Positions 7,404 to 57,902 of a stretch of 64,000 bases of DNA are shown one piece after another; position 1 is the stretch's first letter, and every line of letters begins with the position of its first letter. Source of the DNA: Bradymonadia bacterium (lineage in GTDB: Bacteria > Myxococcota_A > Bradymonadia > UBA7976 > UBA1532); contig JBKAGE010000075.1 in the NCBI GenBank assembly GCA_046290225.1, positions 32,001 to 96,000 of the forward strand. The letters run 5' to 3'. Made by a program: the position numbers and the translations under genes. The notes beneath the pieces are model-generated. The model saw only the letters and a program-made list of their open reading frames with translations, was not told the origin of the DNA and ran no database searches.

Positions 7404-9752
7404 ATGAACGACGATCTCAAGGTCCCCGCCATCGCCCGCGCGCTGGTGGGGTTCATCGGCCGAAAGCCCTGGGTGGCGCTGTTGCTGGGCCTGGCGACGG
7501 TCTTCGCCATGGGGCCGGGCTTTGCGAAGCTCACCGCCGACTTCACCCACAAGGGCTTCTTCTACGAGGAAGATCCGATGATGGTGAACCTCGAGGCTCT
7601 TGAGCGTCGCTTTGGCAACGACGACTCGGTGGTGGTGGCGGTGCACAGCCCCTCGGGGGTCTTCGACAAGGAGACCGTGGAGCTGTTGCAGAAGCTCACT
7701 GAGGCCATGTGGCTGGCCCCGGACGTGATTCGGGTGGACTCTCTGGCCAACTATCAGTGGGTGCACGCGGAAGAAGACGACATCCTCGTCGAGCCCTTTT
7801 TGCCCGATGACGTGGAGATCACCCCGGAGTTCCTCGCTGCCCGGAAGAAGATCGCCCTGGCCCACGAGACCTTGCCTGACTATCTGGTGAGCGCCGACGC
7901 CAAAACAGCCATGCTCTTCGCCAAAACGAAGCCGGGCTTCGAGAACCCCCCTGATTCACCTGTGGTGGTGAACGCCACTCGCAAAATCATCAAAGAGCTC
8001 GAAGCGGGCGATCACACTTTCTTCATCAGTGGCGGCCCCGCCATCAACACCGCCTTCATGGAGGCGGCGCAGATGGACATGCAGCGTATCATGCCGGTGG
8101 TGCTCGGCCTCACGGTGTTGTTGCTCATCGCGCTGTTCCGCCGCGCAGGGGGCGTGTTCTTGCCTCTGTTGGTGGTCATCCTCGCGGTGATGGGCACCAT
8201 GGGCTTCTCGGGTCTCGTGGGCCTCGAGATCACCAACATCACCGCCATCCTGCCCCAGGTGCTGCTGGCCATCGGCATCGCCGACGGGGTGCACATCATG
8301 GTGACGTTCTATGGCGCGATTGGCAGAGGCGCCACCAAACGCGAGGCGGCAGACTACACGCTGCTCAAGAACTTCCTGCCTACGCTGTTGACCAGCCTCA
8401 CCACTGCGGTGGGCTTTTTCAGCTTCATCACCGCAGATCTCAAGCCGGTGAGCGGGCTGGGCCTCATGGCGGGCCCCGGCACCCTGCTGGCGTGGTACGT
8501 GACCTACTTCGTGCTCGGGGCCCTGCTCTACATCCTGCCCTTCAAGGAGAAGGCCCGGCCTGCAGAGGCCATCGAGGCCCGCAAGCGCAGGGCTCTGGAC
8601 TTCACCAGAATGCTGCAGACCAACCGCTCAGGGATCCTGTGGGTGTTTGGGATTCTGTCGGTGAGCGCAATCGCCATCGCGGCTCAGAACACGGTGAACT
8701 CTGATCCATTCAAGTACTTCGAGGAAGGTTTCCCCGCCCGTGTGGCCAACGAGTTCATCGAGGCTGAAGTGGGGGGCGCCCGAGGGGTGGAGCTGGTGGT
8801 GGACTCTGGCAAGGCAGAGGGCATCAAAGATCCAGCCTTCCTCAAGAAGGTCGAAGCGCTTCAGATCTGGCTCGAAGACATGCCACGTGTGACGCGCACC
8901 CTGTCGATCGTCGACATCCTCAAGTCGACGCACCGATCGCTCCACGGAGACGATCCAACGAAGTACGCCCTCGCGGAGACTCAGGAGGCCATCGCCCAAG
9001 AGCTGTTGCTCTACACGATGAGCCTGCCCCAGGGCATGGATGTGAACGATCGCATCTCCGTGAAGAACGACACGCTGCGCATCACAGTGCTCTGGACGAT
9101 TCCCACCTCTTCGGAGAACGTGGAGGCCTTCGCGCACATCAGAGGCAAGGCCAAGCAGCTGGGCCTCGACGTGACGGTTACGGGCAAGAACGTCCTGTAC
9201 CAAAGCATGAACGGCTATGTGGTGAACTCCTTCCTGGTGTCGTTCACCGCGGCGGTGGTGCTCATCAGCCTGCTGCTGGTGATCTTCTTCAAATCGGTGA
9301 AGCTGGGCCTCATCGCCATGATCCCCAACCTGATCCCACTCATCGCCGGCGGCGCGGTGCTGTACCTCATCGGTCAGCCCCTGGACATCGGCACGGTGCT
9401 GGTGGCTTCGGTCTGTCTGGGCATCGCCGTGGACGACACGATCCACATCCTGGCGAACTTCAACCGTGCTCGACTCGAGGGTAAGAGCCGACAACAGGCG
9501 GTGACGGAGGTTTTGGCCTACACGACGCCGGCGCTGCTGGTGACGACGTCGATCCTGGTGCTGGCCTTCGGCAGCTTCCTGGCGGCCACCTTCATGCCCA
9601 ACCTCTACTTCGGCCTGATGGTGGCGGTGATTCTGCTGGTGGCGCTGATTACGGACGTGACCTTCCTGCCGGCGATGGTGATGGGGCGGGGGGATGATGG
9701 GGATACACCCCAGAAGTCTGGATCTGTTCGTCGGGTGCCTCAGGAAGTGTGA
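7404..9752 (+). CDS. MMPL/RND-superfamily transporter
   Basis: Two repeats of TM + periplasmic loop + 5 TMs, with AIGIADGVH and GIAVDDTIH motifs. Confidence 0.9.
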   Translation: MNDDLKVPAIARALVGFIGRKPWVALLLGLATVFAMGPGFAKLTADFTHKGFFYEEDPMMVNLEALERRFGNDDSVVVAVHSPSGVFDKETVELLQKLTEAMWLAPDVIRVDSLANYQWVHAEEDDILVEPFLPDDVEITPEFLAARKKIALAHETLPDYLVSADAKTAMLFAKTKPGFENPPDSPVVVNATRKIIKELEAGDHTFFISGGPAINTAFMEAAQMDMQRIMPVVLGLTVLLLIALFRRAGGVFLPLLVVILAVMGTMGFSGLVGLEITNITAILPQVLLAIGIADGVHIMVTFYGAIGRGATKREAADYTLLKNFLPTLLTSLTTAVGFFSFITADLKPVSGLGLMAGPGTLLAWYVTYFVLGALLYILPFKEKARPAEAIEARKRRALDFTRMLQTNRSGILWVFGILSVSAIAIAAQNTVNSDPFKYFEEGFPARVANEFIEAEVGGARGVELVVDSGKAEGIKDPAFLKKVEALQIWLEDMPRVTRTLSIVDILKSTHRSLHGDDPTKYALAETQEAIAQELLLYTMSLPQGMDVNDRISVKNDTLRITVLWTIPTSSENVEAFAHIRGKAKQLGLDVTVTGKNVLYQSMNGYVVNSFLVSFTAAVVLISLLLVIFFKSVKLGLIAMIPNLIPLIAGGAVLYLIGQPLDIGTVLVASVCLGIAVDDTIHILANFNRARLEGKSRQQAVTEVLAYTTPALLVTTSILVLAFGSFLAATFMPNLYFGLMVAVILLVALITDVTFLPAMVMGRGDDGDTPQKSGSVRRVPQEV

Positions 9753-9755
9753 AAA

Positions 9756-9838
9756 GAGAGTTTCGGGCACGGGCACGGGCACGGGCACGGGCACGAGTTG
9801 ATACATACGCGGACCCGTGGTCCTGTCTGGGCTCAGGT
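9756..9838 (+). repeat. (GGGCAC)5 repeat module, copy 1
   Basis: GAGAGTTTC-(GGGCAC)x5 (9765-9794)-GAGTTGAT-N-GGACCCGTGGTCCTGTCTGGGCTCAGG, starting 3 nt after the MMPL stop. The flanks are shared with the copies near 44.0, 44.3 and 56.0 kb. Confidence 0.9.
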
Positions 9839-9889: not shown

Positions 9890-10061
9890 GGCCCCGCGGA
9901 GCGCCGCAGGTGGCGACAGTCGTCGTGAGCGTGGTGAGTTTGCGTGCAGATGCGGGTTTTCACCCGCAGGGGTAGCAGCGCTACCCCGAGGAAGGAAAAG
10001 TCGCAGCTGTGCGTGAAATCGCCGCGCTCACGGCGGCTGGCGCCGCCGAAGGCGCGGAGCC
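9890..10061 (+). repeat. ~172-nt long imperfect hairpin element, copy A (structured RNA or REP-like ssDNA element)
   Basis: Nested stems GCGCC/GGCGC, GGTGGCG/CGCCGCC, GTGAGCG/CGCTCAC, TGCG/CGCA and GGGTAGC/GCTACCC. Homologous to 55572-55744 in inverted orientation with compensatory changes. Confidence 0.85.
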
Positions 10062-11900
10062 CTAGTAAACGTCTTTGAGGTAGCGGCCGTTCTTGCTCAT
10101 CCATTTGAGCAGGGCCTTGGCGTCGCCTTCCGAGTAGCGGCCGTAGGTCATGATCACCTTCATCAGCGCCGCGTGTACATCCTTCGCCATGCGGCTCGCG
10201 TCGCCGCAGATGTAGATGTGGGCATCAGCGTCGATCCACTCCCAGAAGTCCTCGCCGTTCTCGAGGATGCGATCCTGCACGTAGATCTTGTGCTCTTGAT
10301 CACGAGAGAACGCCAGATCGAGGCGTGAGATCAGGCCGCTCTGGTACCAGCGCTCCACCTGCTCTTGATAGAGGTAGTCGCAGTGGGCGTGGCGGGCGCC
10401 GAAGAAGAGCCAGTTGTAGCCCTGAGCGCCGCGGGCCTCGCGCTCTTCGAGGAAGGCGCGGAAGGGGGCGATCCCCGTGCCTGGACCGATCATGATGATC
10501 GGTGCGTCGTCGTCATCGGTGATCTTGAAGTTGGGGCTGCGGTGCAGATACACCGGCACCCGACTGCCCGGTGGGCAGCGCTCACCGAGGAAGCTGCTCG
10601 ACACGCCTTTTCGGTTGCGGCCGTACATGTGATAGCGCACCACGTCCACGGTGAGGTGAACCTCGCCGGGGTGGGCCTTGGGGCTCGAAGAGATCGAGTA
10701 GAGCCGGGGGGCCAGGGGCTTGAGCGCTGCAGCGAAAGATGCCGCGTCGGGGCGGATGCCCGCGAGGCTGAGCAGATCGCCCACATGGTGCTTGCCGATG
10801 TACTCCTTGCGGGCGTCGGCGCTGTTGGCGATCGGCTGGAAGAGATCTCCGGCGTAGCGGCTCTCTGCCGCGAGCTTGAGCAGCCGGGCGTCGATCTTGA
10901 TGATGTCCAGCCGATGGGTGAGGGCGTCCAGCAAGGTCATGGCCTGACCCTGGACTTCCACCACCTCGTCGCCCCGCAAGCCCACGTTCTGCAGCGTCCA
11001 GCGGACGAGATCCGGACAGTTCTGAGGGAACAGCCCCAGGGCATCGCCCACCTTGTAGTCGATGCCGGAGCCGCGCAGCGACAGCGCCACGTGGCGGGTC
11101 TCTTTGTCGGAGTCGGCGCCGTTCAGGTTGTGGTTGACCAGGATGGTCGACATGAACGGGTTCTTGCGGGAGCCGATCTCCGGCTCTTTGGGTGCCTTGG
11201 CCGGGGTGGGCCTGGGACGCGCTGTGGGCTGTGGGCGGGCTACGGGCCGCGGTGGGGTCAGAACCTCGGCGGGCTCGTCGTACTGAGAGTCTTCGTACTC
11301 GGACTCGTCGTATTCGGACTCGTCGTACTGGGACTCTTCGTACTGGGACTCTTCGTACTGGGATTCTTCGTATTGGGATTCATCGTACGCTGACTCGTCG
11401 TATTCAGACTCGTCGTATTCCGATGCGTCTGGAGCCGCAGCGTCAGCGGAGAGATCGAGCTTGCCCAGACCGGCGATGACCTGACCCAGCCAAGCCTCGA
11501 AAGGCTCTTCGAAGTCGACGTCGCAGTCCTGTCTGGGGGCGAAGCGCTTTGCCCCCAGGGCGGCGAGGCGGCTGTCGAAGTCCTTGGCGCACTGGCAGAA
11601 CTCGTCATAGCTGGTGTCGCCGAGGCCACAGACGCTGAAATTCACGCCGGAGAGGCTTGGTGCGTCGTCGTCCATCAACGCCGCATGAAGATCTTCTGCG
11701 TTCGAGGGAGGCTCGCCATCACCGAACGTGCTGGTGACGATGAGCAGCACCTGAACGTGCGGCAGGTTGTCGGGGTCGAAGTCGTCCATATCGAGGACTT
11801 CAGCTGTGTAGCCCCGACCTGTGAGTGCCTCGCCGGCCTGCTCGGCGCAGCCCTGGGAGTTGAAGGTCTCGGTGCCATACAAAATGTAAATCGTCGACAT
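10062..11900 (-). CDS. Diflavin (FMN/FAD) NADPH oxidoreductase, CysJ/cytochrome P450 reductase-like
   Basis: N-terminal flavodoxin (TSTFGDGEPP, GLGDTSY), RLYSISSS, MIGPGTGIAPFR, FSRDQEHKIYVQD, YICGDASRMAKDV and a C-terminal RYLKDVY. The likely start is ATG 11900 (MSTIYILYG). Confidence 0.9.
   Translation of the reverse strand: MSTIYILYGTETFNSQGCAEQAGEALTGRGYTAEVLDMDDFDPDNLPHVQVLLIVTSTFGDGEPPSNAEDLHAALMDDDAPSLSGVNFSVCGLGDTSYDEFCQCAKDFDSRLAALGAKRFAPRQDCDVDFEEPFEAWLGQVIAGLGKLDLSADAAAPDASEYDESEYDESAYDESQYEESQYEESQYEESQYDESEYDESEYEDSQYDEPAEVLTPPRPVARPQPTARPRPTPAKAPKEPEIGSRKNPFMSTILVNHNLNGADSDKETRHVALSLRGSGIDYKVGDALGLFPQNCPDLVRWTLQNVGLRGDEVVEVQGQAMTLLDALTHRLDIIKIDARLLKLAAESRYAGDLFQPIANSADARKEYIGKHHVGDLLSLAGIRPDAASFAAALKPLAPRLYSISSSPKAHPGEVHLTVDVVRYHMYGRNRKGVSSSFLGERCPPGSRVPVYLHRSPNFKITDDDDAPIIMIGPGTGIAPFRAFLEEREARGAQGYNWLFFGARHAHCDYLYQEQVERWYQSGLISRLDLAFSRDQEHKIYVQDRILENGEDFWEWIDADAHIYICGDASRMAKDVHAALMKVIMTYGRYSEGDAKALLKWMSKNGRYLKDVY
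11274..11423 (-). repeat. Ten tandem 15-bp coding repeats encoding an acidic Tyr pentapeptide, S-(E/Q/A)-Y-(D/E)-(E/D)
   Basis: CTCGTCGTACTGGGA-like units on the + strand; they translate to SEYDE SEYDE SAYDE SQYEE SQYEE SQYEE SQYDE SEYDE SEYED SQYDE in the interdomain linker. Confidence 0.95.
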
Positions 11901-12090
11901 AACGCTGTGTATGGGTCGTTGGCAGGGTGTGCTGGAGAGATGAGCTTTGATGGTTGCGGGTCGCACCTTCTGTCGAGCAACCCTATGGCCCCATCATAAG
12001 GGCAGGTGCCTCGATGCCACCAGAGTCTAGAACAGGATTGGGAGAGAACCGATGGAGCGGCCCGTGTCCACACTGCTCCAGCAGCGGCCT

Positions 12091-55571: not shown

Positions 55572-55744
55572 TGCTCCGGCGCTCCGGCTCTGTGGCCCGC
55601 ACTCAGGGCGGCGATTTGGCGCACATCTGCGGCGCTTCCGTCCTCGACGATGCCATGGCATCGCCTGCGGGTGAATCACCACAGCTGCACACCAACTCAC
55701 CACCCTGAGCACGAGCCCCAGAGCCTCCACACCTCCGCGGGGCA
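55572..55744 (-). repeat. ~173-nt long imperfect hairpin element, copy B
   Basis: Minus-strand stems GGTGT/GCGCC, GGCTCTG/CAGAGCC, CTCAGGG/CCCTGAG and CGATGC/GCATCG; homologous to 9890-10061. Confidence 0.85.
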
Positions 55745-55954
55745 CGTGCACGACACTTCTCTGACTTATATGACGGCAGTGTTGGGGCCCTCGTTCTTCT
55801 GGCCTTCGGTTACGACTACGCGTTCTTCACGACGTCTGCACCAAGGCTCATGAACCTCACGACGGCTGTACTACTGCGTGAACACGCTTCGCTGCCCAAT
55901 ACACCCCAGGCCCGACGCGCCTGAACACTCATCCCAGAATTCAGGACTGTACGA

Positions 55955-56001
55955 CTCGTGCCCGTGCCCGTGCCCGAAACTCTCTCGCGAGCGACAGCGA
56001 G
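55955..56001 (-). repeat. (GGGCAC)3 repeat module, copy 4
   Basis: Minus strand reads CTCGCTGTCGCTCGCGAGAGAGTTTC(GGGCAC)3GAG immediately after the dapF stop. Confidence 0.85.
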
Positions 56002-56844
56002 TCAGCCATCCTTCCCCCAACACCCGCTGAACACGTACTCCGCAGGCCCGGTCATCCAGACCGGGTACAGCCCCGCCTCTGACTCCACCTCGATCACCAA
56101 GTCTCCCCCCGGCTGTCGAAGCGTCAGCGTGCCCGAGGTGCGCTCCTCTGCGATCAGCTGAGCTACGGCACCCGCGCAAGCACCCGTGCCGCAGGCCCCC
56201 GTGAGCCCGCTCCCGCGCTCCCAGACCACAAAGGGCTGCGGATCGAGATCCCGCGCTCCGAGGAAGCCCACGTTCGTGCGGTGGGGGAACGCCTCGTGTA
56301 CCTCGAGCCCCGGACCGTGCGTGCAGGCCAGATCGGTCAGATCGCCTTCACCGAAGGCCATAGACCACTCAGAAGTCGTCATCACAAAGTGAGGGTTGCC
56401 CACGCTCAACCGCCGACCGGAGATCGAGCGCCCTGCGTGCTCGATCGTCAGGGCACCATGATCGGTTACGGCGCCCATCTGCACCCGCACCCGGCGATCA
56501 GCTGCAGGATGAATCGTGAGCACCCCGGCGCCGGTCTCCACTGCGGTGGGTGCCTCCTCGACGCCGCCCAGATCCCACGCATAACGCGCCACGCACCGCA
56601 GCCCGTTTCCGCACATTTCTGACACAGAGCCGTCGGCATTGAACACTTTCATGCCGATGGGGGAAACGTCAGAGTTTTCAGGTGTGTAGACGAGCAGCAC
56701 GCCGTCGGCACCCACCCCTGTGGCCCGATTACATATCCGGCGAGTCGTTTCTTGGTTCAAGGTCTGCGTATCGAATGCCGACCCAAGACGTGCATCGACA
56801 ATTACGAAGTCGTTGCCCAGGCCATGGTACTTCACGAAATCCAT
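56002..56844 (-). CDS. dapF: Diaminopimelate epimerase
   Basis: KYHGLGNDF, GVGADG, NADGS-SEMCGNG, GNPH and WERGSG-T-ACGTG, with both catalytic Cys present. Confidence 0.95.
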   Translation of the reverse strand: MDFVKYHGLGNDFVIVDARLGSAFDTQTLNQETTRRICNRATGVGADGVLLVYTPENSDVSPIGMKVFNADGSVSEMCGNGLRCVARYAWDLGGVEEAPTAVETGAGVLTIHPAADRRVRVQMGAVTDHGALTIEHAGRSISGRRLSVGNPHFVMTTSEWSMAFGEGDLTDLACTHGPGLEVHEAFPHRTNVGFLGARDLDPQPFVVWERGSGLTGACGTGACAGAVAQLIAEERTSGTLTLRQPGGDLVIEVESEAGLYPVWMTGPAEYVFSGCWGKDG

Positions 56845-56891
56845 GGCCCGAACACTAGCCGAGGGCGCCTCGAAATGGCCAGCTCTCGACC

Positions 56892-57902
56892 ATGTTGAGG
56901 GAGCAGATGGCGCTTGACCCCATGGCACTCGACCGGCCGATCATCGGCGCTGATCCCGCCATCCGTCGGGTATTCAAGCTGATCGACAAGGTGGCCCCCA
57001 CCGACAGCACCGTGCTGGTCCTCGGTGAGAGCGGGACTGGTAAAGAGCTCGTGGCCCGGGCGATTCACCACGCCAGCGATCGACACAAGAAGCCGCTGAT
57101 CCCGGTGAACTGTGGAGCGATCCCCGCCAATTTGCTCGAGAGCGAGCTCTTCGGCCACGTGAAGGGGGCCTTCACCGGCGCCTCCGGCAGCCGCCAGGGG
57201 CGCTTCGAACTCGCCCACGGGGGCACCATCTTCCTCGACGAGGTCGGTGAGATGGAGCCGCAGCTGCAGGTGAAGTTGCTGCGCGTGTTGCAGGAGCGCT
57301 GCTTCGAGCCTGTGGGCGGCAGCCGCAGCATCGAGGTGGACGTGCGGGTCATCGCCGCCACCAATCGCGAGCTCGAAGAAGAGGTCGCCGCAGGGCGCTT
57401 CCGCGAAGATTTGTACTACCGACTCAACGTCGTACCCGTGGAGCTGCCGGCGCTGCGAGAGCGTCAGCAGGACATCCCCGTGTTGATCCATCACTTCAAC
57501 GATCGCCTCGCGCAGAAGCGCGGTCGCTGTGTAGAGGGCTTCAGCGACGACGCCATGCGTCGGCTGACGGCCTACCCCTGGCCCGGCAACGTCCGGGAGC
57601 TGGAGAACATCGTCGAGCGACTCTCGGTGTTCTGCCAGGACGAGGTGGTCCAACTCGACGACCTGCCCAGCAAGATCTTGAACCGCGCCCGCAAGCAAGA
57701 TGGCTTCTGCCTCGACCTGCCCGACGAAGGCCTCGACCTCAAGGGCATGCTCACCGACATCGAAGATCATCTGATCCGACAGGCCCTGGAGCGCACCGCC
57801 TGGAACAAGAACCAGGCGGCGAGTCTGCTCGGGCTCAACCGGACCACCCTGGTGGAGAAGCTGAAGAAGCGCGGCATGCTCTCCCCAGGGGATGCTGCCT
57901 GA
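56892..57902 (+). CDS. Sigma54-dependent enhancer-binding protein without a receiver domain (FleQ/FlrA-like by context)
   Basis: [35 protein letters not shown] and a Fis-type HTH ([13 protein letters not shown]); upstream of the flagellar operon. The start is uncertain (56892, 56907 or 56922). Confidence 0.92.

Follow-up and report, generated by a model that had tools for sequence, protein, structure and literature searches.

Genomic context of two hairpin loci

The window, a 64,000-nt stretch of contig JBKAGE010000075.1 (positions 32,001 to 96,000), belongs to the Bradymonadia draft assembly GCA_046290225.1 (8.58 Mb, 83 contigs, 99% complete). A preliminary description placed two mutually inverted, about two-thirds identical intergenic segments at 9890-10061 and 55572-55744; these coordinates are correct, and the identity over the hairpin core is 67% (110 of 165 columns). 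Both segments belong to a repeat that we refer to as family A.

The hairpin core of copy 1 (GC-GGA to GGAGC, 9896..10060) has its strongly folding sequence on the + strand, as judged from the sequence, from folding, and from a score of 168.9 bits against model R1, which is not independent because copy 1 was included in building the model. Within it, positions 9962..9992 (+) form an apical module (CC-GCA-GG, a 7-bp stem and a GA loop) that is common to a wider superfamily. The 5' neighbor is an ORF for an MMPL/RND-type transporter (7404..9752, +; below family cut-offs), and a (CGGGCA)n array, which belongs to a separate repeat family, lies upstream of the copy at 9755..9800 (+). The stop codon of a CysJ-like sulfite reductase flavoprotein ORF (10062..11966, -; 585 bits, below the cut-off of 668) is found 1 nt past the 3' end.

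Copy 2 (core 55573..55738, identified by sequence, folding, and model) folds strongly on the - strand and is preceded by an unpaired 5' leader (55739..55772, -) that is common to other copies. Four nucleotides past its 3' end is the stop codon of rplC, encoding ribosomal protein L3 (54801..55568, +; above the TIGR03625 cut-off), so the reported spacing of no more than about 4 nt from a stop is right for both copies. The 5' neighbor is dapF (56002..56928, -), with a second (CGGGCA)n array upstream of the copy at 55955..55985 (-). A diverged left-arm fragment of another family A copy lies at 55807..55868 (-; C75:87868-87807, E 5.6e-5) and stops at the apex. This rplC is the sole one in the assembly; an amidase-like ORF and dapF flank it, and the usual S10 operon surroundings are absent. 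[quoted passage not shown]

A repeat family with a strand-specific fold

Iterated nhmmer searches of this genome (converged, E<=1e-4) recovered 115 family A hits, 82 of them full length and about 33 partial, extending the dispersed family that had been proposed from two segments. The copies are short (~166-180 nt), non-coding, intergenic, and dispersed, as MITEs are. In 57 of the 82 the core is 165-167 nt, and most of the others have a short apical insert. Pairwise identity ranges from 40% to 95% of aligned columns (median 63%) and nearest-neighbor identity reaches 98.8% (median 91%); the family comprises subfamilies, with fixed helix lengths.

Both window copies fold as a single unbranched rod on one strand. 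From the foot, the rod consists of GC, a GGA/GGA loop, 5 bp, a GNA/GNA loop, 7 bp, and two long stems with single bulges, followed by the apical CC-GCA-GG/GA loop and a 7-bp tip. Folded as RNA, the G·U strands have z-scores of -10.1 (copy 1) and -9.7 (copy 2), against -4.5 and -3.3 for the opposite strands. The same strand folds better in all 82 copies with either RNA or DNA parameters, and the pair cells of the family hold 737 G·T against 26 C·A, which bears out the strand specificity claimed from the two copies. The one-sided fold implies that the selected state is single-stranded.

The compensating stem pairs quoted previously are all present in the sequence, and the family extends the pattern. 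In a 22-copy alignment, 95.9% of cells pair and double changes occur at 46 of 64 pairs, whereas slid partners pair in 29-49%. With all 82 copies, 13 of 58 pairs exceed a self-built, R-scape-like tree-aware null at E<0.05, so covariation is significant in the larger alignment as well; three further covarying pairs lie outside the consensus structure, two of them on a helix diagonal. Compensatory double changes map to 43 base pairs of the 82-copy alignment. Loop motifs that had been described as invariant are so between the two window copies; across the family, the letters that stay constant are G and A in the G-N-A loops (mean conservation 97.6%, against 77.5% for paired columns), and TTCACC, one of the motifs named, covaries with its partner. 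The motif CGNAG, found at five loop positions with high conservation, is present 515 times on the strong strand and 86 times on the weak one. Covariation and loop conservation together support selection on a single-stranded fold with conserved loops.

The two ends of the element differ. Upstream sequence is shared with another copy in 48 of the 82 copies; this is an intron end in four of them and otherwise an unpaired, A/C-rich leader that fades upstream. No IS-type terminal inverted repeat was found outside the hairpin, the ends being the unpaired leader and GGAGC. No target-site duplication was detected, as 3-5 nt flank identity never exceeded 12% at 13 offsets, although the 5' boundary is imprecise and a duplication could lie farther upstream. 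Mini-copies retain both ends and have the middle deleted, and tandem partial copies are present at both ends of elements. In 43 pairs of copies the outer stem is shared and the inner stem differs, and two paralogous genes have the same junction but different element bodies.

Position at gene ends

Genes were called with a simple self-written ORF caller (6223 genes). Of 80 copies scored, 74 have their 3' end facing a stop codon on the opposite strand (40.5% expected); two further copies without a clear end were left out. In 53 of the 82 copies the 3' end is located -1 to 9 nt from such a stop, compared with a uniform expectation of 2.8%, and six more abut a stop behind a duplicated 3' tail, giving 59 stop-abutting copies. 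Other 3' ends are at a terminator T-run (four copies), a tRNA 3' end (two), a possible start codon (five), or a stop-like triplet without a called gene (three), and nine have no assignment. This gene-end rule suggests that the 3' junction is set relative to functional boundaries.

The orientation of the 5' neighbor is random (36 versus 32 among 68 scorable copies). A position between convergent genes, as initially described, therefore applies to both window copies but to just 36 of 68 across the family, the rule being that the 3' end faces a stop. No neighboring gene transcribes the strong strand in 32 of the 68 copies. In every stop-abutting copy the mRNA of the abutting gene bears the weakly folding strand, which argues against the suggested role as a 3'-UTR element of that gene. 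No replication-strand bias was detected in this genome (32 versus 26, with 20 undetermined, among 78 scored copies); orientation goes with genes rather than with replication.

Several copies are located just before a start codon with GGAG at ribosome-binding distance (C4:39523, C46:54970, C56:53354, and others); by eye, the genes behind such copies include pyruvate carboxylase-like and Obg-like ones. Family A also flanks tRNA gene clusters (C20:180-1260 and on C24), one of which is interrupted by an IS-like element.

A sister family and relatives in other genomes

Family B, with 22 copies of 159 nt in this genome, has the terminal repeats that define a MITE together with the apex of family A. 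Identical 3-nt flanks are kept in 13 of the 22, and the duplications read TNA. Its inner boundary, GC-GGA...GGA-GC, is the outer end of family A. The 5' flank of family B is a stop codon in four copies and the 3' flank in none, a polarity opposite to that of family A. Longer (~280-290 nt) and mini (~50-65 nt) variants of family B are present as well.

The apex pattern was found in at least 118 stretches of a species-wide collection, of which the named ones (80) are mostly from Desulfobacterota; other named carriers among the matches listed are Myxococcales, Gammaproteobacteria, Planctomycetota, and Clostridia, with some of the matches being chance ones within coding sequence. The pattern also occurs in four viral-contig stretches; BLAST searches gave short chance hits only among plasmids and none among phages. 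A looser version matches 44 of 113 genomes of the class, compared with two matches in all for the controls. Among 106 distinct foldable apex hits in other genomes the same strand folds better in 103, and stop-abutting polarity is weak (16 versus 6), with noisy boundaries. Model R1 gives hits, all weak, in 7 of the 27 other genomes of the taxonomic family. Those present in several copies carry terminal repeats; one copy, from another genus, is laid out like family A and lies against a terminator. In the complete chromosome of Desulfosarcina alkanivorans, the superfamily model R2 gives 77 hits at 76 places. The strong strand is the C-rich strand at 63 of these 76, unlike in the present genome; the replichores were assigned from noisy skew in 20 sampled windows of 20 kb. 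Tandem arrays of apex hairpins are also found at other loci (L106, L089, L114, L137, L149, G008:C115, and G071:C45), including four at a 183-nt period in L106.

Insertions into the hairpin

Family A serves as landing site to two other elements, a group II intron and an IS-like one. The 5' end of the intron is present at six contig ends, in each case on the weak strand and following the [CG]CTCCG of family A. Its 3' end is found at six contig ends and one inner remnant, with a match to RF00029 (49.1 bits) in the four 3'-end contig ends tested. A terminus of the IS-like element is carried by 21 contig ends, in every case preceded by GTAGCC and a further 3 nt, which is mostly the tip of a family A arm. 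Insertions into family A account for many contig breaks of the assembly, from which the bodies of both elements are missing. Group IIC introns are described as inserting behind DNA stem-loops (PMC10190682), and by analogy the resident intron may be explained as a guest of the hairpin. Metagenome pattern scans for the family A 5' end and the IS-like terminus gave no matches; class-wide near matches to that terminus were rejected as chance.

Comparison with known repeats

The closest published relative, Gmet_R1001-R1024 (24 copies), was described in Geobacter metallireducens as a "predicted short RNA element" (Aklujkar et al. 2009, PMC2700814, Fig. S1). Like family A, it is intergenic and multicopy. 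Its central palindrome, GRCGTAGCGCTGCTACGCC, is the reverse complement of the family A apex, including the GCA/GA loop (rows of supplement S4), and R1003, R1010, R1015, and R1021, among other rows, also bear flanking TCCTCG / CCTGCGG. By this sequence match the apical tip of family A is not new, so that of the earlier suggestion of an undescribed element the lack of a matching Rfam family stands, but the apical module had been published. G. bemidjiensis alignments may also hold the apex. The Geobacter element differs in being a ~113-nt BLAST alignment with a variant loop in most rows, whereas family A measures ~166 nt and has a 5' leader and two outer GNA/GNA loops; the available portions of PMC2700814 state no structure, strand asymmetry, mobility, or gene-end rule for it.

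The features of MITE, ERIC, RPE, and REP repeats are those given in PMC2229807, PMC3184786, PMC10969869, and PMC3733652. As described there, REP/REPIN sequences resemble family A in being palindromic, downstream of genes, and targets of IS elements (PMC3733652), but they are 20-40 bp long and tagged by GTAG or CGTC, and a RAYT gene is often linked to them, whereas family A is a ~166-nt rod with none of these properties. Long-hairpin MITEs (ERIC, RUP, Correia, Chunjie, and RPE) are likewise, in the same sources, non-coding, dispersed sequences of 100-200 nt with a long stem-loop, and ERIC in particular is reported at gene 3' ends with orientation-dependent effects on mRNA (reviewed in PMC2229807, PMC3184786, and PMC10969869). 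Family A departs from them in that its hairpin is not enclosed by terminal inverted repeats and is not accompanied by a duplication. Neither the apex pattern nor model R2, the latter run with strict filters, gave a hit in Escherichia coli K-12, and BLAST of one relative was negative; these searches indicate no detectable link to ERIC, although remote kinship may exist. RPE-1 (TIGR01045 profile) gave no hits in this genome at E<=1, and it is an in-frame insertion in genes, unlike the intergenic copies of family A.

Integron attC sites fold on one strand, conserve structure over sequence, lie directly behind a stop codon, and are targets of group II introns. Family A shares the one-strand fold, the conservation of structure above sequence, the position behind a stop codon, and the intron, but has no R boxes or cassette arrays and neighbors core genes such as rplC and tRNAs.

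Our literature search, which reached few subscription papers or bioRxiv supplements, found no account of a shell-less, stop-abutting form, and the family A motif strings matched only primers in paper texts. What was not found in print is the joint occurrence of conserved G-N-A loops and a 3' end at an opposite-strand stop (59 of 82 copies) in an element that has neither a terminal repeat nor a duplication. Family A is a well-supported structured repeat family, kin of widespread miniature mobile hairpins. The tip is published and long-hairpin MITEs are familiar; what stands out is a polar gene-end rule without terminal repeats, beside a conventional sister family.

Proposed mode of spread

Of the two readings offered in the preliminary description, a non-autonomous mobile element is the better one. 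We propose, with confidence that is about evenly balanced, that family A is mobile foldback DNA whose copying is carried out in trans by an enzyme recognizing the folded strand. The pattern of copies implies mobility, and the presence of the apex in family B and in terminal-repeat elements of relatives counts in the same direction. Family A would then be a shell-less form of a widespread group of hairpin MITEs, since the core that lies inside terminal repeats in family B and the relatives is the outer boundary here. The enzyme would be encoded elsewhere, most likely as the transposase or recombinase of a multicopy element absent from the draft, and would bind the folded strand at the G-N-A loops and copy the element. 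The GGAGC(AAAG) end may be joined just past a gene end by targeted one-ended insertion; alternatively, it may come to lie there through repeated one-sided loss of the 3' flank, with selection halting the loss at a stop codon, terminator, tRNA, or start codon. Covariation would then reflect selection on copies able to be copied rather than a host RNA function. That host selection alone bars the strong fold behind a stop codon was also considered and is weakened by family B, which has that arrangement in four of four stop-overlapping copies.

DNA rather than RNA is modestly favored as the folded state by the CGNAG enrichment, the stability of GNA loops as DNA, the internal-deletion mini-copies, and transcription of the weak strand. 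GNA mini-hairpins are described as more stable as DNA than as RNA (PMC13037366), and mini-copies that keep both ends would be expected if the hairpin forms in single-stranded DNA. Against mobile DNA are the lack of an enzyme or empty site in our searches, the absence of replication-strand bias in this genome, the weak stop polarity elsewhere, and the ~16% of G·U-type pairs and the GA loops, which suit structured RNA equally. Paralogue searches, the metagenome scan, and public sequencing runs yielded no empty site and no transcript (the runs contained at most 11% of words, as fragments only, and none of four examined crossed the element), so movement is inferred from dispersion. No autonomous partner with the same ends was detected in an assembly from which multicopy IS bodies are missing, and the absence of multicopy enzyme genes is for the latter reason weak evidence. 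Searches of this 99%-complete draft, which lacks those bodies, gave no hits to Y1_Tnp, IS110, IS630, or PD-(D/E)XK; the single GIY-YIG and single DDE_Tnp_1 hits are not beside a family A copy. No transposase is among the matches listed for the DNA between back-to-back copies, where ordinary ORFs are found, and no protein family recurs beside the apex at 140 loci of other genomes.

The G·U-rich stems and GA loops, typical of RNA, could instead point to a host-useful structured RNA or antisense insulator, an explanation we think unlikely. A strong-strand RNA, from its own start or from opposing read-through, would be produced, and the C/A-rich leader and hairpin would stop or buffer antisense transcription before the gene end. 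The 50 nt upstream of family A are 36% C and 15-18% G, a C-rich, G-poor composition like that of a Rho loading site; the orientation with genes rather than replication agrees with this explanation, as does the annotation of the Geobacter relatives as predicted short RNAs. However, Rfam yielded no gathering-score match in the window, only chance hits at E 0.33-9.9, and left the hairpin unmatched in 20 loci of relatives. No promoter- or terminator-like site was detected near either window copy, and no neighboring gene transcribes the strong strand in nearly half of the scorable copies. Near-identical copies at unrelated genes, a patchy distribution in relatives, and an apex inside plain MITEs are parasite-like, and the 0-9 nt spacing is left unexplained. 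Comparable in probability, and likewise not favored, is a decayed MITE that was spread earlier by a DDE transposase, lost its terminal repeats, and no longer has an enzyme, gene conversion and hairpin-templated repair having since maintained the similarity of its copies. A MITE of this kind, sharing the core boundary, exists in family B, and the copies look mosaic, given the 43 copy pairs with differing inner stems and the paralogous genes with one junction and different bodies. Yet templated repair predicts perfect pairs or balanced mismatches and not the observed excess of G·T over C·A, no remnant of a terminal repeat or duplication was found in family A, and the stop polarity of family B (four versus none) is the reverse.

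Two further mechanisms appear still less probable. Retroposition in the manner of a SINE, using the resident group II intron's reverse transcriptase and primed at the element 3' end on DNA nicked near a gene end, would fit the fixed 3' end, the fading 5' end, the lack of a duplication, and the tandem partial copies at both ends, and the intron does reside within the family, with all six of its 5' ends behind a family A motif. No clear stand-alone 5'-truncated copies were found, though, the short copies being internal deletions, and an intron on the weak strand just behind the hairpin is accounted for as a guest, in line with the stem-loop targeting of group IIC introns (PMC10190682). The only assembled reverse transcriptases are two convergent genes at C79:177218-182477, of which the one scanned is retron-like and below family cut-offs; no family A copy is near this pair (C79:178-181 kb), unlike what a retron msDNA-like repeat linked to its reverse transcriptase would show. 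There is an equally slim chance that family A is a REP/REPIN-type substrate of an HUH (RAYT or IS200-like) transposase, as had been proposed. A strand-specific hairpin without duplication, at gene 3' ends and targeted by IS elements, has properties attributed to REP in PMC3733652. The G-N-A-G before the long stem is GTAG in 10 of 82 copies and GGAG in 65. Family A is far longer than REP, though, and the missing Y1_Tnp hits here are matched in five other apex-carrying genomes by the absence of the apex motif within ~1.5 kb of 30 Y1 loci (of 38 matches). A single loose apex match near Y1 loci was rejected because it is not complementary. Moreover, IS200/IS605 elements follow a lagging-template rule, and the strong strand in D. 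alkanivorans, on the C-rich strand at most places, runs opposite to it.

An old open question is by what route repeats with long hairpins, such as ERIC and RPE, spread, and why they retain an internal fold for which a cut-and-paste transposase has no need. The present genome bears on it, for it holds both forms of one core, family B with terminal repeats and a duplication and family A with neither, at opposite stop polarity, which provides a built-in comparison. A mechanism that homes to gene ends, if true, would be a harmless-insertion strategy of a new kind. Going further, and rather speculatively, family A might be bacterial mobile DNA of a new class, which has lost its IS-type ends, is read as a ruler-like single-stranded rod with G-N-A knobs, and is actively homed by its enzyme to the ends of transcription units (stop codons, terminators, and tRNA ends). 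The cross-phylum apex would then be where the enzyme binds, and the terminal repeats seen in relatives would be no more than the hairpin's foot.

Associated repeats

The (CGGGCA)n family comprises 120 arrays genome-wide. Of 83 family A hits scored, 14 have an array within 1.5 kb, invariably on the upstream side and with matching orientation. The arrays are also where about 30 contig ends are concentrated, many of them carrying ends of another inserted element. An ORF for a 403-aa DDE transposase with short terminal repeats and a 9-bp duplication (C50:54446-57895) lies inside a long palindrome that is bounded by (CGGGCA)n arrays.
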